Assembly: GCA_017654855.1 (NCBI GenBank)
Contig: CM030332.1
Span: 744,001-808,000 of the forward strand
Origin: Podospora anserina
Lineage: Eukaryota
Direction: 5' to 3'
Length of the DNA stretch: 64,000 bases
Part shown: piece by piece, positions 3,001 to 54,856 of the stretch
Numbering within the stretch: the stretch's first letter is position 1
Layout of the letters: each line of letters opens with the position of its first letter
Notes under the pieces: model-generated
What the model was told of the DNA's origin: nothing
Databases searched by the model: none
What the model saw: the letters and a program-made list of their open reading frames with translations, nothing else
Program-made: the position numbers and the translations under genes

Positions 3001-4370
3001 ATCTGCGAGATAAGGGTAGAGTTTGAAAGCGGTTGGGCCCATCTTAACCTAGATCTCTGAGACTGATGACGGCGCCGGAAAGAAAAGTCTGTGCAGAGTT
3101 TGTTATCAGGTTGTTGGGAGCATCGAAGAGTGGGGAACCAACGTAGGAGCAGAGATAGGTTTGATGGCCTCAGGTTGCTCGACATCGAAGTGAATAGAGG
3201 AGTCCCTATCTCTGCAATGTATTCACCCGATGTTTTATTTACCAGGCCACCTATCTCTGCCCTTCTACAGAGCTGGATTCACACGTAATCTGATAAGTTG
3301 GGATTTTTACGTTGCTCTCGTAGCCCCTAGTGTCCCCTGACTCCTTTGTCCGAACTCCTGGGAGCACATCTCAACGATTCTAACTGGGTCTATCTGGTTA
3401 TCTTGAAGGTGAATTATCTAGATATCTCTCCCAGCCACCTTGATAAGGCGCGTGTGAGCGTCAAGATACCTGTTTCTTTGTTTATTCACTGCGGAAGGGC
3501 CCAGGTGAACTCGACGCAGTGGGTCTGGCCCAGCCGTCTTCTCTCCTCGAGAGGTTATAAAGTCTTGCCCTCCTTCCCTCTCAACGCCTATCTTTCTTTC
3601 CCACTCACAACCACAGCAAAGACCATTGCTTGATCTACATCAAGCAACCAGCCAAAAATCTTTGCACCAACCACTCTCCGGTAAGTTCCTACCTTGTACT
3701 CCTCTCCTGGTGTTACCCAATACCCTGTATTCGAACGACATATCCCTCCTCCCATTCTTTCCCAACTCTTCTCCTTCTCTACATCTTCCTCTTCACTTCT
3801 ATAATCACAAGCTGTTTTCTCCCACTTCATACCCTCAGAAATTCCGCCCTCTCTCCTCGGCTCACTCCAAAGTTTCACTCATTCACATCACTCCTTACCC
3901 CTACCTGGCACTGTTGTATCATCCTCACCTAATTCCTTCCCCCAGATCTTTCCTTCAAACCTACCGTTTTTCCTGCCTATTCCCACCATCCTTGCCACTA
4001 CCACCTCTACCGGTCAGCCACAACCACCCTCTGCTCCTTCCTACCATCGGTTTGCCTTTGTGGGTACCGTGGCGGTGGCTTGATCAAGTTTTTCCTCATC
4101 TCTTCTAGCTGGAAGCCTTTGCTACACTTCACTTATCCCCCCTCCACCCATCTTGCTCTTTTGTCTACGCTCATTTTAAAATTTTCACCTCTCCCTGTTT
4201 CTTTGGCACCTCTCCTTCTCCCTGCCGAGATTTTTGGGTTCACTTACCATCCATCACTTCACTTTTATCCACGCCCTCCTCAATTCAGGACAGTAAAAGC
4301 TCACTATTTTCAACAACAGCTGCAAAACTCTTCGCTCTAGACATCGCCGAGTCATCACCAAGTCGATACC

Positions 4371-7300
4371 ATGGCGAAATCAAAGAACAGCAGACAGAAG
4401 GGCCGAAAGAATGCCACTCAAAAGGGTGAATCCAGTGCCCAGGCCGACAGACGCGCTACCCAACTGGAGCTTCCAGAGGGTTACCAGAAACTTAGCCCCA
4501 ACAACGGTGGCTCCAGCAGCTCTGGCCATCCCAGAGGCAATGGGAAGCTCAGCAATGAGTCTAAGAAAGCCCAGGATTCTGCCAGTTCTGCTGGAAAGCT
4601 GTCTCCCTCATACCCCAAGCCGTGGGAGATGTCAAAGCTTTATGTAATTCTCAGTTCTGATCCTTTGCCGGCACCCACGCTAACAGTTTCACAGGGTGCT
4701 CCCATTGACAAGCCTGGAACTCTGAACTTCAACTACGATCGTCCCTGGGTTTCTCTCGAGGGCAAGCATGTGAAGTATGAGCTCGCCACCGCTCTTGAGA
4801 AGGGTCGCCGTGAGATGTTGCCTGCTGTGTTCCCTGACTACATGCCGGAGCAGAAGCAGGAAGTTCGGAACCAGTACGAGAGAAGTGGCTTGTTGGGGTT
4901 GTTTGAGGCTCGTGACAGCTGCAACAAGAATGCCCCGAAAGTTCCTGGGTTTTTGGGTGGCGTAAGTTTTGTCCTAGTTTCCCTGTTCAAAAATTGCTGA
5001 ACTGACACTGTTGTATAGATCAACCCTGACATGATCTCGGTTGAAGACACTACGCAAGTGGGCGCCAACGATGTGAACCCACTAATTGGATTCCTCACCC
5101 AGATTGATCTCGCCAGAGAGATCATCAATCTCTTGCATCCGAGTGTGCGCGATATCACGGCATTGGCCTTCACATGCAAACAGGCCGGCCAATATGTCGA
5201 CCGAATCATGGTTAGTGCCTCACCTCTAATATCTTCAACCTATATTCAGTGTTAACCTTATGTCAGGAACGCTGGGACTACACCACCGGGGAGAATTTCG
5301 CTGATGTTTATCTCCCCAAATTCGGCAACGATGGAGGAGAAATCAAGAGAGCTGGTGTACGGAGCGACATTCTGGTCATCACACCAACCTCCCCCAAGCC
5401 CCCGAGTCGCACGCCATATCTCGATGATTTCGGGAGGACTCTTCATATTAGTAAGGATATATCAATGTTTCCTCAGCTAAATTCATGCTAACTCATTCTT
5501 CTAGTCAAGGTCATGGTTAGCATTCCGCAGAGTTTCCGACACGTCGTCCTTGACCGGCTACCCTTTTTGGACGTCAACATGGTGGGTCTGGTTATCAGTT
5601 CCATGCCCAACCTTGAGAGCTTGGCCATCTCGCGTTGCGACCTCCTCGACGTCGCCAAACTCCCTGCATTGATCAAGATCATCAAGGAGCATCCGAGAAC
5701 GCCCCACAACAAAGGCAAGGCCAAAGCCTTACGCACCAGTAACGCTGTAGAGGGCGAGAATGTTGGAGAGAACGGCGGCCAGAATAGTAACGGTAACAGC
5801 AGTGCGGATGACAGCAGCTCTACGGAGGACGAAGACCAGACGAGCAGCAAGGACACATCCCTGTTGACTGAGCCCGACACCAGCTTGATCTCTACGGATA
5901 CAGCAGCAACCTCGGTGGGTGATGAAGACCAGACGGGCATCGACGTCACAGCAGCGACCACGGATGCTGAGGGTAACGCTCCAATCCACTATATACGATT
6001 GGATTTCAGCCCTTTCTTCTTCCGCGGCCCCAACACTTGCAAACGACTTGGATCTTTTGGTGTTACGTACAACGAGCCCACGTTCCACTCCCCAAAGGCC
6101 GTGGTAGCTCTTATGATGCAGTGTTGGGACGACGCGGATACTATCGGGATGGACTTGATGAGCGATAGCTCTTCTTTCTTCAGCTTCGTCCGTCGTCTTC
6201 CCGGCCGGAACTGCTTATGGTCCTTGAAAGCGCGGGATGCTATGCTGTCGTTGAAGCGGGAGACCAGCGGTACCGTGCTCTCAGCAGACTTCCAGCGCAC
6301 AGTCGAGCGCACAGCTCGCTCCGAGATTATCGCAGAGAATCACGGCAGTTCTAGGGTTGCCCAGCCAGCCTTCCTTGATCAAGTCACAGCCCGTGTCGTA
6401 AAGCTCCGAAAGGAGAAGCACGACGAAATCAAGAAGGAAGCCCAGAACCGCTTTTGCGATGATCTGATGGCAGCTACCAGCGGCGACGACTTCAGGCCGT
6501 CGGATTACCCTCTCCCGAACAGTATAGCGTTCTATCTCGGTAACGCTGAAAACCACAACGCCTTCGGGTACTGGCGTCGGCAGTATTTATGTCAAGGCTG
6601 CAAAAAACTCCTGCCCCGCGTCCTGTTTGCAATCGAACTCGATGATTGTTGGGGCTGCAAGATGGTCGCCTTCGTCAGGGACATGGAGAGCAGCGACCTT
6701 CGCCGCTGGAAGCAAAGCGCTATTGGGTATTACCTCAAGGGTCTGGACATAAAGAAGGGGTCACTGACTGATGTCATTGACCCGGCCCGAGGTCGACACT
6801 TGACGGCAGCTCTCGGGGCGGCCAAGATAGCCGATTCTATCTGGCTGAAGTTTATGAACTTCTCCCCGACCGATCCGGTGGTGTACCCCCCCGAGCCACC
6901 CAACCTACACAGGAACACCGCCGCTTACTCACGTTATCGGTGGAAACATAATTGGCCAGAGCAGGCGTTTGATTACCGGGAGGGTGGTCCTCAACATGAG
7001 GATCCCTTCAAGCACCCAATCTCCGACTGGGAAGACACCGAGATCTGCGGCGGTGAGCCTCCCGAAAGCTTTAACGCCAATTTCCAGTGGTCAGAGGAAG
7101 CCAGTACGACTCTCTTTGAGGAGTATATCCGTCGAAACGGACTCGCGAAGCAGATCACCGATCCCGAGGCCCAGAAGAGGATCGCCGCTGCAAAGGAGTG
7201 GGAGAAGATTCGGCGTCTCCCCGGGCCAAAGGATTATTCAAAGAACGGAATGTGGCACCTTGGACGGGACCTCAGGCGCTACTACCAGAACCAGGGTGAC

Positions 7301-46200: not shown

Positions 46201-47494
46201 ATACTCCAAGCCCATAGCATCAGCCAGAAGACCAGATTCGTGTTCGGGTTGGGCGGCGCGTCGTCGTTCGAGGTGACCTCTTGTGTACGCTGGTACCACA
46301 TCTTGTCCGCTTGACGGTCTCACATACCTAAGGAGAACCACGGATTTTGTCCAGCTGGCCCAAGCTCTCACAGGGACGCGGCAAATTCTTCCTGTCGTGC
46401 TTGCATTTGTCACCTCTGCCGGTCGAGGCAAACCTCTCTATTTTGAGAGAGGAGCTGTCCCTGCAGTTGGACGGAAGCACCGGCTTCGGAGGCTCAGAGT
46501 AAGCGGCAAAGAATCCGAGAGGCTCTCTCTCTCACGGGGGGTGTGAGAGTCAGTTCAACAGCACGTACCCAGCAATCTCGCTGGATGATAGAATTGGTTC
46601 TACCAGTTCCCATCTATCCTGTCCCACTGTTTGTTCTGTTAGCCTTGCGGTGACGGGAAATATAAGTTGACACACACAGCCGGGTTCTGTGGATCACGAC
46701 TTACGCGACAGGTGTTGTGTGGTGTGTGTGTGTGCGTCTTGTCAGACCTTCCCAGTCGGTTGACAAGCGGAGCAAGCAGCAGAGGAGGGACCCCGGACAT
46801 TTGCTTTGTTTGCATTCTCTGTCTCTCTCTCTCGTCTTGCATGTGCAGCAGGTTCCGCGGGACTGGGAACACATAGCCAGGGGAACCCACTGTACCTTTT
46901 GCTTTGGCCCAATCCAGGGTCAACACGCGATTTGGCTATTCAGACAATTCGGGGGGGGGGCGTCCGGAGTGAGAAGTCCAAGGCTGTTGAAAGTTTTCCC
47001 CTATCTAGACAAGCTTTCTTCTCTGCATTGCTCACACGGCACAAGACAACAACTACCATCGCATTATTTTCTGTTGTCTCAGATTTTCGGACGGAGAAGA
47101 CCAGATCTTCCATTGCCACGGGTTCTTTCTTCTTTGAGTATTCACTCTCGGGCGATAGCTTAGCACAGACAGACAGGTCCTTTGTTCGATTGCGTGTACC
47201 TGCCTGGCGGGTGGTGTTATCTTTCCTCAACTGAGACTTTGCAACAAGACTCCGCGGTTTGCACTTTCTGAGGTCCTCTCGGCGGGTGTTTGTGGCAACG
47301 ATTTCAAAAGGAAAGAGCGAGGAAGGGTAACCCGACGGAGGAGATTGAGCTGTGGAACACGCATACTTGCAACTTTTCGGCAACAGCGAACGGGTCTGAA
47401 TCATCAAGTCAGGCAAGGCCGAAGGATCTGGTCTGGAAGGGTTGCCTCTTTCTTTCGCCTACCTATCTCGACGGGACGGCTTACTTTTTCCAAC

Positions 47495-47500
47495 CACACA

Positions 47501-47540
<40 letters not shown>
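47495..47540. repeat. (CA)n microsatellite, about 23 units with one interruption
   Basis: Directly visible, about 290 bp upstream of the ABC transporter ATG. Confidence 0.95.
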
Positions 47541-47826: not shown

Positions 47827-50800
47827 ATGGCGGACCCATACGACGCCGACGTCCCAGAAGAGGAGAGCCCAATATTCCGCCACCTCCTCGCCTCGCTTCA
47901 CTACGGATACCCAGCCGCTGTCTTCATCTACTACACCATCTCGTCCACCATTGCGGTTTGCACTCTCCAGACCCGGTCCACCGCCGAGTCCAAGGACCAT
48001 CCCCGTCGCAGGTTCATCTCTTGGCTGTTGATGCTGGGCATTCTGAGTTGGTTTGCTCAGCTGGGATATCTACTATTTGTGGCGGTTGCCGAAGAGAAGT
48101 TCCCCCCGGCGGAGCAGGATGTCATCATCGGCTTGCTGAGCTGCGCGCTGGTGTTTGGGGTGCAGTTTGCGGGGCTTTGGGAGGCGGAAAAGGCGGTGGT
48201 GCTGTGGCCGTATATGGGGAGTGTGGGCATGGGGATGGTTTTTGAACCTGTTTTGGTTTGGTTGACTTGGAAGACTAGGGTGGAAACTGGGGGGTTGGGA
48301 TTCAGGGAGATTTTTGATTTCTCGGCGGCTGGGGCGAGATGGGCTGCGTTTGGGTTGGTATTGATGTTTTATTTTGAGGGGGTTTGGAATGTGAAGAGGG
48401 AAAAGGCTACTGATATGGAAAGGCAGGGCTTGCTCAACAAGACGAATGGACATGTGAACGGGGTTGAGTCGGATGGGGAGGAGAGGAGCCAGAATGGGTA
48501 TGGGGCTACGTCGGATAGTTCTACGGATGCTAGTCAGAGCCCGACTACTGATGCGGTTGAGTCTCCGTGGGAGAGGAGGGAGAGGCAGGCAAATGAGGCG
48601 ATGGAGAAGAGGTTGAAGGAGAAGGGTAACTGGGTTACATACGCGAAGAGTTTCTTGGTATGTCTGAATAGTTTGTGGATGCTGAGGTGAAGCTAATGTG
48701 ACACGGATGCAGGTTTTCTTCCCTTACGTTTGGCCTGTCAATCATCGGTCGCTTCAGGTTCGCGTTGTTCTTGTTGGTGTTTGCTTGCTCGCCATGAACG
48801 CCATCAATGTTTTGATCCCGCGGCAGATGGGCATCATTATGGACAGTTTGGCTGGTGATGTGGACAGAAACCCCTGGACCGAGGTCATGATATTTGCTGG
48901 TCTGAAGCTGGTAGCTTCCGAAGCAGGTCTTTCCCTCTTGCGACAGTGGCTTTGGATTCCGGTTGAGTATTACTCCTTCGATGCTATGAGCACGGCGGCA
49001 TACTCCCACGTCCTTAACCTCTCGTCCGATTTCCACGATTCGAAGAGTTCTTCCGACATCATGATGGCCATTCAGTCTGGTCAAAGCATCTCCAACATGC
49101 TCGAATCGATTTGTTTCCAGGCCGTTCCCATGCTGATCGACATGACAGTCGCCTTCATCTACCTGTCGTATACCTTTGGACCGTACGAGGGCTTCATCAC
49201 CATTGCTACCGCGGCCGTGTTTCTGTATATTGCCACTCGGATGATTTCGAAGCTCAAGTCTGCGAGGAGGGGTGAGGTCAGCGCCTGGTTCAAGGAACAC
49301 TATGTCAGACAGGCTGGTATTCAGGGATGGTCAACGGTCACCTGCTTCAACCAAGTTGGACATGAGGAGGCAAGATACTCGGAGGCTGTCAAGGATCGGG
49401 TGGCAAAGTCGCAGAAGGTGTACTTTGGCTACGTGGTTGCTTATGCTTTCCAGTTCTTGGTGTTACTGTCGGGTTTGCTTGCTGGTGCTTTTCTGGCGGT
49501 TTACCAGATTACACATGGCCAAGTCACACCCGGAAAGTTCATCATGTTGCTGACGTATTGGGCTCAGCTGGTGGCGCCGCTGACCTTCTTTGCTGGGCTG
49601 GGCAAGACGATAAGCAAGGATCTTATTCACGCCGAGCAGCTGTTGGAGATCATGCAGACGAAACCGACCATCAAGAACAAGGAGGGGGCACCGCCACTGC
49701 ATTTCACCGGCGGGAGGGTCAAGTTTGATAATGTGTGCTTCTCGTACGACAAGAAGAAGGAGATCTTGAGGAATATCGACTTTGAGGCCACGCCCGGGAT
49801 GACGGTTGCTTTTGTTGGGGCAACGGGGGCGGGAAAGTCGACGATTCTGAAGCTGCTGGATCGGTTCTATGATGTGACGAAGGGAAGCATCACGATTGAT
49901 GGGCAGGATATCAGGGATGTGGATTTGTTCAGGTATGGTACCAACGAGCTGATTAGATACGAGGGTAATGCTAACGACGTGAACAGCTTGAGAGGACAAA
50001 TCGGCATTGTTCCGCAAAGCCCGATCCTGTTTGATGACACCATCATGAACAATGTCCGGTATGCGAAGCTCACGGCGACAGATGAGGAGGTCCATGAGGC
50101 GTGCAAGGCTGCTAGTATCCATGAACAAATCATGGGATTCTCGGACGGTTACAACACTCGGGTTGGGGAGCGTGGTGTCAAGCTTTCTGGGGGTGAGCTT
50201 CAAAGAGTGGCGATTGCAAGGGCCATCTTGAAGAGGCCGGCAATTGTGCTCCTCGATGAGGCTACCAGTGCGGTCGATACCGAGACTGAGCAGAAAATTC
50301 AGGAGGCATTGAGAACCCTTTGCAAGGGGAGGACCACTTTTATTGTTGCGTAAGTTTTGCTGAAATGGGAGACAAGGGGCTAAAGTGCTGACGTTGTTTT
50401 GATAGGCATCGACTTTCCACTATCATGAATGCTGACCGCATTATTGTTGTTGGCGGAGGAGAGATTGTCGAACAGGGGAGCCACGAGGAGCTGATCCTGC
50501 AAGAGGACGGCAAATATGCCGAGCTCTGGTCGAAGCAAATTTTTGTCAAGCCCAAGGACAGCAAGGATTCGACTCCGGACGGCACCAAGTCCCCGGTCAA
50601 GGGACGTAAAGCACCGAATATCGTCAATGACCTGAGCGCTGAAGCTACCAACTCGGTGCTCGCGAAAGTGACAAACAAGCCAAGTGTGCAGACGAATGGA
50701 GACGCCACGAAAGATCCGAACAGCGCTGTAAACGGCTCCGTCGGCTCGGAGAACACCAAACCAGCGAGTGGTGCGGTGAACGGGCACAAAAAAGAGGTAT

Positions 50801-51650
50801 GATTGATAGAATCCTGTTTGCACTGAAGGGAATGTATCGGGCTCTATATATATCGTGACATATATATCTAGATACATGGACTTTTTGGTGGCTCGGGGTT
50901 CTATCTTTCCTGGCCTTTTCTAACCCCGTGTAGGACACTTCGTCGTCGTCGAGCCGCTTGAGGCTGAACCCTGGTGCTCCGACCTTTATGCCTCGCATTA
51001 GCACAACCACTCCGTCTAGCCCTGTTGGAAGGGTAGTGGATCGGTCATTTGGAAACGACAGCCCGCGGGTTGTACCTTTGACTACTACTCCTGCACCGCC
51101 TCCTTCACCTGTTGCCCCCCTTCCTCGTGGACTTGTTCCACCGCCTGGGGTCATCCCGCCGAACCACCACGTTCAGTTTTTTGCCACGCCAGTGGTTATG
51201 GTTCCTGCTGGGGCGGCGGCAACGCCATATCCGCTGTTTCCACCCGGCGGCGGGTTGCCTTTGTCGTCCTCGTTGGGTGTGAGACAAACGCAGCAGCAGA
51301 GAGGAGGGCAGGATGTCAAGCAGCAGTACTGGGGAAAAGTCCCGTCAACCGTGGGAATGATGGGTATGGGATTGACCACAACTCCAAGAAAACCGAGATT
51401 AGATTGGAAGTCGATCTCGCCGCGGACACCTGAGAGTGATGACGAGGAGGATGAGGACGAGAAGGGAAAGCGGATATGTTTTGATGATGATGAGAAGAAG
51501 GGGAAGAAGGGGGGTGGTGATGGGGATGATGAGAAGGATGGAGAAGTGAGGGGATACTTCCCGTTTTATTCGAGGAGGATTCAGAGCAAAAGTGAGCCGA
51601 GTGGTTCTGGGCAGGGTGTCAGTCGGTCTCCTACCGAAGTGGAGGAGTGA
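47827..51650 (+). CDS. HMT1/ABCB6-like ABC half-transporter; short form stops at 50802, spliced long form runs to 51650
   Basis: N-terminal TM extension, ABC membrane domain, Walker [10 protein letters not shown], signature LSGGELQR, Walker [18 protein letters not shown]. Introns 48658-48712, 49933-49986, 50350-50405 and optional 50797-50933. Confidence 0.9.
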
Positions 51651-52714
51651 GTGGGTGATCAAGCATCTTTTTTGGGGGGTTCATACCTTTTGACTGCAGC
51701 ATTGTGCATCTATAGAGGGGTTGAAAGGGGAGTGTTAGCTATTTTATTCACAATCATATTAGAGGTGGGATAGGTAGGGGGGAGAGAGCCGGGGTGGTGG
51801 GGGTGGTTTAGAAATGGGGTTAACTTATTTGCATTCTGTTTCATGGGATAGATAAAGTTTCGTGTTTTTTTCTTCTCCTTTTTTGTCTTCTTTCGGGGGG
51901 TGATTATAACGTGATAATGGTGGCTGAGAAAATGGTTGGGTGTAAGGAAGGGTTGAGTTGGTGGTTTAATTCTTATGATAATGATATCGTGGGATAAGGC
52001 GGGGGAGGATTATTGATTTAGTTATACGTGTCTTTGGTTTAATGAGATGAATTATTACTGTCTTGATTTTGTGTTGGGTGAGACAGATGTGTGAGCTGAT
52101 CAATGATTGTAATCCAAGAGAGAAGTGGTGTGCCGCTGAATATCTCTTTTCACTTTTTTTGGTCATTCTTTTAGCCTTCATTAATGCATACACAACAATT
52201 GTACATATGGATGAGAATGTTTACCCAGAAAGGCAAAAGATACTGAGATCCTCCCTCTTTTCCCAGCTATTCGGGGTGAGCTCCTCCTACCACCATTTTT
52301 GCTTGTCCCCCCCTCTCATCTGGCCCAGCCAACTTGCTCACACACCATCAAACACTCCCACCAGACTCTCGCTTCCTCCTTTCTCCCTAATGTACAATAA
52401 AAAAACTACAAGTAATGTCCGCATCATGGAAAAAACAACACATAGATGCTCGCTTTCCCCCACCCCCCATCCCTTCCCACGCCAACAAATTTTAAGAGTG
52501 GTGTTGTTGTTCGTTTTTGTTTTCATGTGTGGTGTGTGTGTCGAAAATGCTCAAGGCGCCGCGCAACCTACCCCCCTTCCCTTCTATACATTTGCCGAGA
52601 AATGGTTCCTGTCCCTTGCTGAACATTATCCCGTATAATACAGTCTCTTGCTTTTTGTTTTTTTGGTTTTGTTTTTGGCCAACAACACCAAATAAAAAGA
52701 AAGAAGAAGCAAAT

Positions 52715-54389
52715 TTAAATCCACTCCCTCCCGCTCTTTTGCATCTCAATCAACCTCCACCCTCTAGTCTCTGGGTTGTTGACATCCTCAGGTATCCTCG
52801 TGATACCAATAGCATATGTCACGAGCGAGACCTTGTCCTCCATGCCCGCCGCGAGCTTGCCCGTCTTGGCGTTGCGGTACACATGCACCTCCTGCGTCCG
52901 GCAAGTAATAACAAAAACCGGGATCTCGCCAGGGTCGAGCATGCGCGCCTTGAGGACGTCCACACCTCGGATATCGAGGATGCGGCCGTCAGACTTGAGG
53001 CCGTTTTGGAGGTACTGCTTCGTCAGGGCCTCGTACACAGAGTACTGCGCCTCCGAGAGCCAGAGCTTGAGCGTCTCGACGTCACCCTTGACGTAGGCGT
53101 CGAGGACTTCGGGGAGGATGTACTCTCGAAGTTCCTGGAGGAAGGTCTCCATCTGGAAGGCCGGGTCCATGGTGCGGACCTTCTTGATGACCATGGCCGT
53201 CTCGTTCTCGGCGAAGAAGCCGGCGACGCGGTCGGTGATGTTGCGGGCGGTGGAGATAAGGGGGTTCTCGGACTCTTGGTAGACTGATTTCAGGCCGAAG
53301 ACGCTCTGCATCATCTTGTTGGAGTCGCGGAAGTCGCGCCAGGCTTCCTTCCAGGCGGCGTCCTTGTGGAGAGTGACGTTGGTTCCGGCACTGAGGGAGT
53401 ATTGTTAGCTGGTATGCTTGCTACTTTGCAAGCAACAAGACTTACTTGGGGTCCTCCTCATGGATCTCGGTCTGTGGCCTGAGCTTCTCTAGAGCCTCTT
53501 TCCGCTTCCTGCGCTCCTCCTTCTCGATCCACCCACCATATCTCGAACTGCTTCCGTCGTCGATCACATCCTTGACATTCTTGTACGCCTCGGTCTCCCG
53601 AATTGGCTTGGTGGCCTTGTCGAGCACCTCACCAGTAATGTTGGCACCCTTTCTTACACCCTTCATGGCACGGGTCTCCCAGGTCCACTGAGCACCCTTG
53701 CCGATGGCACCAGCAGTGGTCTTGACAACGGTCGCGGCAGTGTTGGTGACGGCACCGGTCGTGGCCTCGTAGGCCTCACGGGCCTTGCGGACCTTTTCGC
53801 TCTCGATAAACTCGGTGGCGCCAGCGGACAGGGCCTTGGTTGACTCATTCCACTCCTTCGACTGCTTGAATTCGCTCTGCATCGTGTCCAGGAACACCTG
53901 CCATGGAGTCTTATCGCCATGTGGTGGGGGAGGTGGCGCATCGCCCTTCTTTCCCTTCTCCTCCTTCTTGCCCTCTGACTCCTCGCCCTCACCCTCTTCT
54001 TTCTTCTCCTTGGCCTCTTCCTTGGTCTCCTCCTTGCCCTCCTCCTTGGACTCTGGCTCCTTCTCCTTCTCTTCTACTGGTACTTTACGTGCCTTGGCGT
54101 TCTCGGCCTGAAGTGATCTGGAAGAGGCATGGAACGAGCGGCTGTGTGATGGTGGTGATGTGTCTAATCTGAGCGAACTGGGGAGGAAGGTCGATCGGAG
54201 GAGGGGTTGTTGCTGGAGCGAAGGAGGGGTAGATGGCCGCCGAAGCCCGTTCTGGGTGTGGGAGGTCTGGCTGGAGAGAAGGCGAATCTGTGCTGGCACA
54301 ACAGTATTGTTGCTGGTGATGTTGCGGAGGCCCGATACTCGCAATGGAGCGGCGGGCGACAGCCTCTGGATCTGCCGGGAGGCGTTCAT
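52715..54389 (-). CDS. TIM44: Mitochondrial import inner membrane translocase subunit Tim44 (2 exons)
   Basis: Arg/Ser-rich presequence from ATG 54389; SSRYGGWIEKEERR, ESENPLIS, FFAENET, LREYILPEVLDAYVKGD, GWRLIEM. Intron about 53445-53392. Confidence 0.95.
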
Positions 54390-54856
54390 GATTACTGCGG
54401 CTGTTGCTGCTGCTGTGAAAGAGGACGGCCCTAGACAGGCGCGAAGAGAAGTGGAAATATTGAAGCCGACAGCCGACATCAGCGAGAGTGTAACAGGAAA
54501 GAAAGCGCGCAAGTGTGGTGGGATTTGGGCCCATGCAAAGTGGATGGGATGCGGCAACAAGAAGATGCTTCAATATCTGGAATTCTTTGGCCGCCCGCCA
54601 AAATCTTTGCCAAGACCCCGGCAAATTCCCGGCTCGGCGCTCCAGTCGGCCGCCACCGAGGGGTCCTAAAATTAATTCGAGCTCCAAAGGCGGTCATTGC
54701 GCTCAGCAGTGATCACCTAGTGAGCGACCTCCAATTGCGCCCCGTGTCTCCGAAGACCGCCCACGACCAATCCGCTAGTGCCCCGAGTCGAGTCGAAACC
54801 GAACAAGCCGTTCCGATCCTCTTTGAAACCCAGCAGACGGCAACTGGTAACAAAAG

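Follow-up and report, generated by a model that had tools for sequence, protein, structure and literature searches.

Retention of the last intron and a PAM2-class motif in the spliced tail of a probable HMT1/ABCB6-type transporter gene of Podospora anserina and other Sordariomycetes

Pa_1_2140 of Podospora anserina encodes an ABC half-transporter, probably of the HMT1/ABCB6 type. The gene lies in a 64,000-nucleotide stretch of contig CM030332.1 (assembly GCA_017654855.1, positions 744,001 to 808,000), which is called the window below and whose first letter is position 1. The last intron of this gene can be read in two ways. If it is kept, as it appears to be in the main form of the mRNA, translation would run into the intron, add a valine (GTA) and stop at the next codon (TGA), which gives a transporter of 936 residues. 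If it is removed, 238 more codons would be added to the cytosolic C-terminus, in the form of a fast-evolving tail rich in Pro, Gly and Ser. The first conserved element of this tail, ten residues past the junction, appears to be a short linear motif of the PAM2 class, and two more conserved blocks come after it.

Our reading, to which we give a probability of about 0.7 on the basis of sequence comparisons, is that retention of the last intron is a conserved switch in which the short form dominates, and that the spliced tail carries a PAM2-class motif that would dock Pab1, a poly(A)-binding protein. The spliced mRNA is probably minor or conditional. The motif would dock the MLLE domain of Pab1 at the cytosolic face of the organelle membrane which bears the transporter. 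This membrane may be vacuolar or endolysosomal, by analogy with Schizosaccharomyces pombe Hmt1, a vacuolar/endolysosomal protein involved in metal or phytochelatin transport. Intron retention would set the number of transporter molecules that can dock Pab1, and the effect would be a local tethering of Pab1 or of poly(A) messenger ribonucleoproteins (mRNPs).

The exon join had been noticed in an initial annotation of the window. What this annotation described is confirmed: the stop of the short form inside the donor (GAG/GTATGA, the slash marking the splice site), the 137-nucleotide (nt) phase-0 intron with branch site TTCTAAC and acceptor TAG, the in-frame join to an open exon of 238 codons, the motif with L, N, A, F and P in place and T instead of E, and, further along the tail, the SPRTP sequence, the acidic patch and the other features. 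The interpretation that it proposed is partly supported, and its suggestions on function, a tethering of mRNPs to organelles or a coupling of transport status to translation, are hypothetical.

Conservation of the exon join in Sordariomycetes

Orthologues were collected with the fused 1173-residue model as query, and the set consists of the best 120 of 311 clusters at E ≤ 1e-100. All 120 are from Sordariomycetes and their lengths are bimodal: 46 models are long, 27 end in ..EV, 39 end in ..EV followed by 1-8 residues, and eight are truncated or odd. Val follows Glu in all 66 short models, as expected if translation runs into the GT of the intron. In every one of the 46 long models, L[ND]P.A..F.P occurs 3-10 residues past the conserved ..GHKKE. 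The most frequent variant is LNPGAPEFTP (26 models), then come LNPGAAEFTP and LNPDAPTFTP (3 each), LNPGAATFTP, LNPDAPAFTP and LNPAAPTFTP (2 each), and eight others are found once each. The initial annotation had proposed to look for the motif and the frame across Sordariomycetes, and both are kept, also in the distant loci L001 and L003 described below.

The long form is already the reference model in Neurospora crassa OR74A (P0149, ..HQKE/HLKLNPAAPTFTPR..) and in Pyricularia oryzae 70-15 (P0166). For Sordaria macrospora, an older record has 918 residues and a newer one 1058 (long). The 1173-residue models of five Podospora species contain the exon join letter for letter as first described, and 1163-1165 of their 1173 residues are identical to the joined reading of the window. 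Only a short model is available for Cercophora samala.

The wide conservation is visible only with the fused 1173-residue query. The tail alone (P0001), compared with 1.84 billion representatives, retrieves only the protein from Triangularia setosa, and word-indexed searches with the tail retrieve only P0002, P0003 and P0004. A metagenome scan with P0001 gave 590 pattern matches, none of which was confirmed, and the ESM Atlas gave no usable match with a Xylariales tail.

Three loci came from a metagenome scan whose query was made of seven aligned Xylariales and Diaporthe tails. L001, a genomic and Xylaria-like locus, reads ..THKKE/GTAGATCC.. and has a 60-nt intron (4028-4087) with an in-frame stop after VDPSNDQS; its acceptor (..TTGTAG/GSKLNPGAPEFTPR..) is followed by a tail of 224 codons. 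L003 is a Microdochium-like contig of 3947 nt, which must be spliced RNA since its ABC frame of 907 codons is unbroken. It keeps the last intron only (3101-3156, 56 nt, GTAGTT..TACTAAC..AACAG), before GSKLNPGAPEFTPC. L002, which comes from a different sample, has the same retained form.

In L001 and L003, the acceptor lies immediately 5' of GSKLNPGAPEFTP, and the stretch from there to the motif has no ATG. In the tail frame of the window, an ATG first occurs at 50988, which is within the motif. The motif can therefore be translated only from a spliced mRNA, and its conservation speaks for a long isoform that is produced and kept by selection. The length of the intron modulo 3 is 2 in the window, 0 in L001 and 2 in L003, and the spliced join is in frame every time. 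Judged from these sequences, the architecture is ancestral to Sordariomycetes: KKE is followed by an intron in phase 0, a stop comes soon after the intron begins, and the motif stands just past the acceptor. For P. anserina itself, we infer the long isoform from this conservation and from the gene models.

Retention of the last intron in transcripts

The contigs of four sequencing runs (X1, X2, X7 and X12) from four studies were compared with the window over 49500-52300. The "RNA" type of these runs is an automatic guess and no run is on record as RNA; they are taken as RNA-derived because they have GT..AG joints at introns 2 and 3 and because X1 contains an untemplated A-run. In all four runs, introns 2 and 3 are removed and 50797-50933 is crossed colinearly. 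X1, X2 and X7 each have one contig that extends from 50406 to between 51753 and 51794, and the X12 contig covers 50693-51497. In X1, twelve A follow position 52060, where the genome reads GTCTTG.

The initial annotation had suggested that the TATATA runs of the intron could serve as a 3'-end signal. The runs are indeed there (50843-50877); their proposed role is unsupported, since no contig end or loose A-run is found within 50797-50933 in the four runs. The contigs cross the intron and the poly(A) site is at 52060, and the short form therefore comes from an intron-retention mRNA and not from the formation of a 3' end inside the intron. The retained-intron mRNA, which encodes the protein ending in KKEV, is the major form in every RNA-derived assembly examined. 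It extends for about 1.26 kilobases after the short-form stop. Intron retention is described as the commonest type of alternative splicing in P. anserina (PMC9801653).

The same retained form is found in other organisms. Ten full-length open reading frames (ORFs) for which Logan assemblies are the sole source terminate at the stop in the intron (P0016, P0040, P0068, P0075, P0085, P0088, P0095, P0108, P0131 and P0144). Since the gene contains introns and these frames are unbroken, they are RNA-derived. No RNA-derived long form is present among the ORFs examined; two long ones from MetaClust (P0109 and P0148) may derive from DNA or from RNA.

In Xylariales, the peptide encoded by the beginning of the intron (V-D-P-S-K-D-Q-S type) is conserved in 38 clusters, where the reading stops after 6 (7 clusters), 7 (30 clusters) or 8 (1 cluster) further residues. 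Such a conserved read-in could be the C-terminus with which the short form is translated; the alternative is a signal for retention in the RNA itself.

Across the donor of P. anserina, the sequence AAA GAG/GTA TGA (50791-50802) is read K-E-V-stop. A second in-frame stop comes seven codons after the TGA, which rules out stop-codon read-through as a route to the tail. The lysines of KKEV were considered as a di-lysine (KKXX) retrieval signal, and this idea was dropped: the short forms of several Sordariales and Coniochaeta end in QKEV, MKEV, TNEV or VSEV, and those of Xylariales, which have different ends, weaken it further. At the other side of the intron, the branch site (50918-50924) has its A 10 nt from the acceptor (gTAG, 50930-50933), and exon 5 opens with GAC ACT at 50934.

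Donors without G at +5 are weak with respect to the usual fungal donor consensus. The other three introns of L001 begin with GTAAG, whereas the last introns of L001 (GTAGAT) and L003 (GTAGTT) have no G at +5, and these weak donors fit a habitual retention. The donor of Podospora (GTATGA) is not obviously weak. The last introns of L001 and L003 also have long identical stretches in common (GTAG.T.CGTCAAATGATC..TTGACTGATACT).

The last intron of Podospora is TATA-rich and long: it has 137 nt, whereas its neighbours have 54-56 nt and the orthologous introns 56-60 nt. The surplus length consists of a nested inverted repeat, which gives a long hairpin. The predicted fold of 50780-50950 has an energy of -56.6 kcal/mol (z = -3.97), and none of 200 shuffles is as stable. 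In the outer stem, the exon end and the donor GU are paired with a U-run just 5' of the branch site. Rfam gives no match at E ≤ 1 over 50600-52200, so the long intron contains no known small nucleolar RNA or other RNA family, and no second copy of the intron was found elsewhere within the window.

Assignment of the motif to the PAM2 class

The PAM2 consensus is given as xxLNxxAxEFxP (PMC4466420), and its Leu and Phe insert into pockets of the MLLE domain (10.1101/2024.03.22.586338). The strict pattern LN[PVA].A..F.P is found once when all six frames of the window are searched, compared to a mean of 0.02 in 200 dinucleotide shuffles. With a looser, ELM-style pattern there are 4 matches for 2.7 expected, which is not significant. 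The copy in the window has five of the six consensus residues (Leu3, Asn4, Ala7, Phe10 and Pro12), Glu9 being replaced by Thr. All six are present in 29 of the 46 long models, namely the 26 with LNPGAPEFTP and the three with LNPGAAEFTP.

The Pfam model of PAM2 (PF07145, gathering cut-off 20 bits) matches seven of seven Xylariales and Diaporthe tails, the best with 22.5 bits (E 7.8e-05). Among 13 other long forms, six score 13.7-17.4 bits, below the cut-off, and seven are not reported. By this curated model, the orthologous site is PAM2, and the sequences indicate that the Podospora copy is a diverged member in which Glu has changed to Thr and Thr to Met; the latter change is specific to the Podospora/Triangularia clade. 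The PAM2 assignment made in the initial annotation is thus borne out by the orthologues and not by the P. anserina copy, on which PF07145 is silent.

A search of the sequences in the PDB with the motif region gave no PAM2 peptide or other meaningful match. Pfam detects no MLLE or poly(A)-binding protein domain in 25 of the 39 ORFs of at least 200 codons in the window; the remaining 14 are overlapping or antisense frames, plus the ABC and tail ORFs, which were scanned separately.

The tail exon

The tail ORF (P0001) runs from stop to stop and opens right after the acceptor TAG. It is 75% identical to the ORF of T. setosa (P0002), with about ten indels that are all in frame. The tail frame has the highest codon score of the six (0.073, the others being between -0.12 and -0.31), and the score of its second half is 0.232. 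The GC content is 0.56 in the tail and 0.41-0.42 in the intron and the 3' flank. The tail is colinear with those of N. crassa (E 7e-07) and Corynascus (E 3e-04 and 0.002).

Pro (14%), Gly (11%) and Ser (10.5%) are abundant in the tail. From this composition, and because ABC exporters have their nucleotide-binding domain in the cytosol, the segment with the motif is probably disordered and cytosolic. In an alignment of 46 tails (four near-identical Podospora models were left out), the Sordariales tails have a common hydrophobic block, and a C-terminal block, ..YSRR[IV]QSKSEP, is common to the Sordariales, Diaporthe, Sporothrix and Phialemonium tails. Those of Xylariales have SPIRNSWAEDVEEE and a run rich in RG/RGG. 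This run is near the C-terminus (about 1085-1110 in P0070; in L001, within 4088-4759) and is absent from Sordariales. Such runs are common in RNA-binding proteins.

Compared to P0001, the Logan-derived ORF P0003 is without 17 residues of the acidic and Gly-rich run (51480-51540 in the window). This difference in length keeps the frame and is located at a short direct repeat, GATGATGAGAAGG.

Points against and alternative explanations

A number of observations weigh against the proposed switch, or against the nature of its motif. Within the contigs of the four runs, the joint 50796^50934, which the initial annotation had proposed to look for, is not found (0/4), it being understood that contigs omit minor variants. 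The two isoforms that it postulated are still the best reading: the short one corresponds to the retained-intron mRNA, and the long one is represented by the tail in 46/46 long models. The long models of Podospora are not independent, because four of the five were built with MAKER using the proteins of P. comata and PODANS_v2016 as evidence (PMC10936905). Two genomes have split models. In one Sordaria genome the locus is annotated as proteins of 918 and 117 residues (P0141 and P0138), and in T. setosa a transporter of 937 residues that ends in KKEV stands beside a protein of 218 residues that starts from a Met within the motif (P0007 and P0002). These split models are probably artefacts of retained-intron transcripts. 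The GC content at third codon positions (GC3) is not raised in the tail (0.55, compared to 0.60-0.68 in the ABC exons), which is a weak point of the case for coding. As for the motif, PF07145 is silent on the long forms of Podospora (P0004), Chaetomium sp. (P0031), Sordaria, Neurospora, Cercophora sp., Niveomyces and Sporothrix, and it does not report the window copy even at E ≤ 10. The Glu is replaced by T, A, S or P in the Podospora, Neurospora/Sordaria and Sporothrix copies. Lastly, a PDB search with a profile of the tail retrieved no solved PAM2 peptide.

One alternative is that the long isoform is real and that LNPxAxxFTP serves another partner, be it in sorting, in docking a kinase or a phosphatase, or in binding to some other peptide-binding domain. 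We regard this explanation as unlikely, while keeping it as a serious one. Outside Xylariales and Diaporthales, the Glu is replaced and the Pfam model gives a score below its cut-off or nothing; besides, the Thr-Pro-Arg that follows the Phe is conserved more strictly than the general PAM2 consensus would have it. However, the ancestral-looking LNPGAPEFTP fits all the fixed positions of xxLNxxAxEFxP and passes the Pfam cut-off, and Leu and Phe are invariant in the 46 long models. The RG/RGG-rich run of Xylariales also speaks for a partner connected to RNA.

Another explanation is that the long protein is the sole functional product, the intron-containing mRNA being incompletely processed, detained in the nucleus or bound for decay, and the short form having no role. 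The conservation of the motif and of the in-frame join in 46/46 long models fits this view, as do the long annotations of N. crassa, P. oryzae and, more recently, S. macrospora. So does the length of RNA behind the short-form stop, which is far above the median 3' untranslated region (UTR) reported for P. anserina, 212-239 nt (PMC9801653). Yet the retained form is what is assembled in 4/4 P. anserina runs, where the same contigs have lost the other introns and one of them has a poly(A) tail, and it is also found in L003, L002 and the ten Logan-only ORFs of several genera. All 66 short models stop within 0-8 codons of the junction. The conserved peptide and stop position of Xylariales fit a translated C-terminus, although a constraint at the RNA level could match them too. 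We consider it improbable that the short form is without a role.

More improbable still is that the tail of Podospora and Triangularia is a separate gene, which would start inside the TATA-rich intron and be translated from Met19 (50988), so that the PAM2-like residues would remain untranslated. This explanation would account for the 218-residue model of T. setosa, which starts from the equivalent Met beside the transporter, for the clade-specific change of Thr to Met in the motif, for the enlarged intron (137 nt, compared to 54-60 nt elsewhere) and for the absence of a spliced contig in the four runs. But LNPGAPTF, upstream of the Met, is intact and fits the Sordariales consensus, which is unexpected if it is not translated. 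The contigs of X1, X2 and X7 go unbroken from the ABC exons into the tail, and the steps in contig depth are at different places in X2 and X12, as expected from 3' bias. Moreover, the interval from 50800 to 50988 has three ATGs that open short ORFs, and no clear TATA-box signal is reported at P. anserina promoters (PMC9801653).

It could also be supposed that the downstream frame is open by chance, within a long 3' UTR, and that the motif is coincidental. This idea could appeal to the GC3 of the tail and to the single protein retrieved by the tail alone; it is refuted on sequence grounds by the 238 open codons, by the frame kept in T. setosa over about ten indels, by the rarity of the strict motif (0.02 per window) and by the homologous tails with the motif in 46 clusters.

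Gene structure and surroundings

The coordinates of the gene are collected in Table 1. Exons 1-4 followed by GTA TGA give a translation identical to P0016 (936 residues). If the 54-nt intron 2 is kept, the translation is identical to the GenBank model PODANS_1_2140 of strain S mat+ (P0010, 954 residues). This model is wrong in keeping intron 2, which adds 18 residues within the nucleotide-binding domain; the newer Podospora models omit the intron.

Table 1. Elements of Pa_1_2140, with positions counted from the first letter of the window
Feature	Position	Strand	Basis
Exon 1, from ATG at 47827	47827..48657	+	List of open reading frames; translation of exons 1-4 identical to P0016
Intron 1, 55 nt, GTATGT..CAG	48658..48712	+	Protein models and sequence; outside the region of the RNA contigs
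Exon 2, transmembrane domain and start of nucleotide-binding domain	48713..49932	+	Pfam; translation of exons 1-4
Intron 2, 54 nt, in frame, donor GTATGG	49933..49986	+	Splice joint in 4/4 runs
Exon 3	49987..50349	+	RNA contigs; translation of exons 1-4
Intron 3, 56 nt, GTAAGT..TAG	50350..50405	+	Splice joint in 4/4 runs
Exon 4, end of nucleotide-binding domain and 87-residue linker with conserved end ..GHKKE	50406..50796	+	ORF, orthologues, translation
Last intron, 137 nt, phase 0, GTATGA..TTCTAAC..TAG	50797..50933	+	Sequence; bridged unspliced by contigs of 4/4 runs
Stop TGA of the short form (936 residues), intron positions +4 to +6	50800..50802	+	Sequence; orthologous ..EV ends
Exon 5, 238-codon tail closed by TGA (51648-51650), with its first in-frame ATG at 50988	50934..51650	+	ORF P0001, coding measures
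PAM2-like motif	50964..50993	+	Pattern search; orthologous motif in 46/46 long models
Hydrophobic block conserved in Sordariales	51165..51212	+	Tail alignments
Conserved C-terminal block	51555..51599	+	Common to Chaetomiaceae, Neurospora/Sordaria, Diaporthe, Sporothrix and Phialemonium tails
3' UTR to poly(A) site	51651..52060	+	Untemplated A12 after 52060 in X1

In exon 2, Pfam identifies ABC_membrane (PF00664, E 1.5e-22) and ABC_tran (PF00005, E 1.4e-29), and the same pair is found in P0004. About 290 residues precede the ABC_membrane match, which bears on the presence of an extra N-terminal membrane domain. The orthologues are named "heavy metal tolerance protein" or "vacuolar ABC heavy metal transporter" in their sources.

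The genes around Pa_1_2140 are ordinary housekeeping genes. Downstream, a convergent TIM44 gene (52718-54569, minus strand) has contigs that begin 64-98 nt past 52060, so that the two 3' ends nearly abut. A (CA)n microsatellite at about 47480-47540 is located upstream of the transporter 5' UTR or in it; by length arithmetic, the X1 contig would start at about 47514.

Relation to known systems and significance

The known PAM2 partners of poly(A)-binding protein (Paip1/2, ataxin-2, eRF3, GW182 and Pan3) are all soluble. The tail resembles them in its linear motif of 12 residues, which lies in a probably disordered region and whose consensus positions are occupied by Leu, Asn, Ala, (Glu), Phe and Pro. 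In contrast to these proteins, the motif is borne by a polytopic ABC transporter, at its predicted cytosolic C-terminus, and an optional splice is needed to include it. A further difference is that the Podospora copy is without the Glu and unreported by the Pfam model.

With S. pombe Hmt1 and human ABCB6, the protein has in common ABC_membrane, ABC_tran and possibly the extra N-terminal region. A splice-dependent C-terminal tail with a PAM2 motif sets it apart from this family, for which no such tail is described in the literature searched. The retention itself resembles the fungal retention of last introns, in which a canonical short intron is left in a polyadenylated mRNA, its neighbours are removed and a stop comes within 0-8 codons. 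Unlike in common fungal retention, both the retention and the in-frame spliced product are apparently conserved throughout the class, and a defined protein-binding motif would be toggled.

According to the initial annotation, no precedent of the fusion was known. No description of a PAM2-class motif on an HMT1/ABCB6 transporter was found in the literature searched, supplementary tables being outside its scope, and Pa_1_2140 is not mentioned in the main text of PMC9801653. As a gene model, the fusion already exists in the references of N. crassa, P. oryzae, S. macrospora and the five Podospora species.

A known case that is related in function is Upa1 of Ustilago maydis, an endosomal adaptor with a FYVE lipid-binding domain, a PAM2 motif and PAM2-like motifs for Rrm4, whose PAM2 binds the MLLE domain of Pab1; the PAM2 motif itself is reported as dispensable (PMC4466420). 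Like Upa1, the long isoform would be a membrane-associated protein with a PAM2 motif and would link mRNPs to an endolysosomal membrane. Unlike Upa1, it is an integral transporter and belongs to an ascomycete, and the likeness is one of function only. Indeed, Pfam detects no FYVE, ankyrin or RING domain in P0001 or P0004. Rrm4 is described for Basidiomycota and early-diverging fungi, and it is an unlikely partner in an ascomycete.

We know of no description of the membrane link for Pab1 and GUL1 on the endosomes of Neurospora and Sordaria. In these fungi, Pab1 and GUL1 shuttle on endosomes (PMC12852828). An integral PAM2 anchor is a candidate for this link. In its most far-reaching form, the proposal would be that the spliced isoform is an integral-membrane anchor for Pab1-bound mRNPs on the vacuoles or endosomes of Sordariomycetes, and an ascomycete counterpart of the Upa1/Rrm4 link. 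We regard this as a doubtful and speculative extension. Were it correct, regulated retention would act as a switch for the number of anchors, possibly with the help of the Podospora hairpin, the RG/RGG-rich run of Xylariales would add a direct contact with RNA, and the presence of Pab1 and GUL1 particles on the endosomes of Neurospora and Sordaria could be explained.

The analysis leads to corrections of gene models: one keeps an in-frame intron, many genomes have the short form only, and some have the gene split in two. Beyond annotation, soluble proteins that regulate translation and mRNA decay are known to carry PAM2, as is the peripheral endosomal adaptor Upa1 of a basidiomycete. If the proposed switch is true, the PAM2-class motif of this polytopic organelle transporter would differ from these in two respects, since it would have been kept throughout the history of Sordariomycetes and would be gated by a retained intron. 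Ascomycete moulds would also have in it a protein that directly connects poly(A) mRNPs with the membrane of an organelle.

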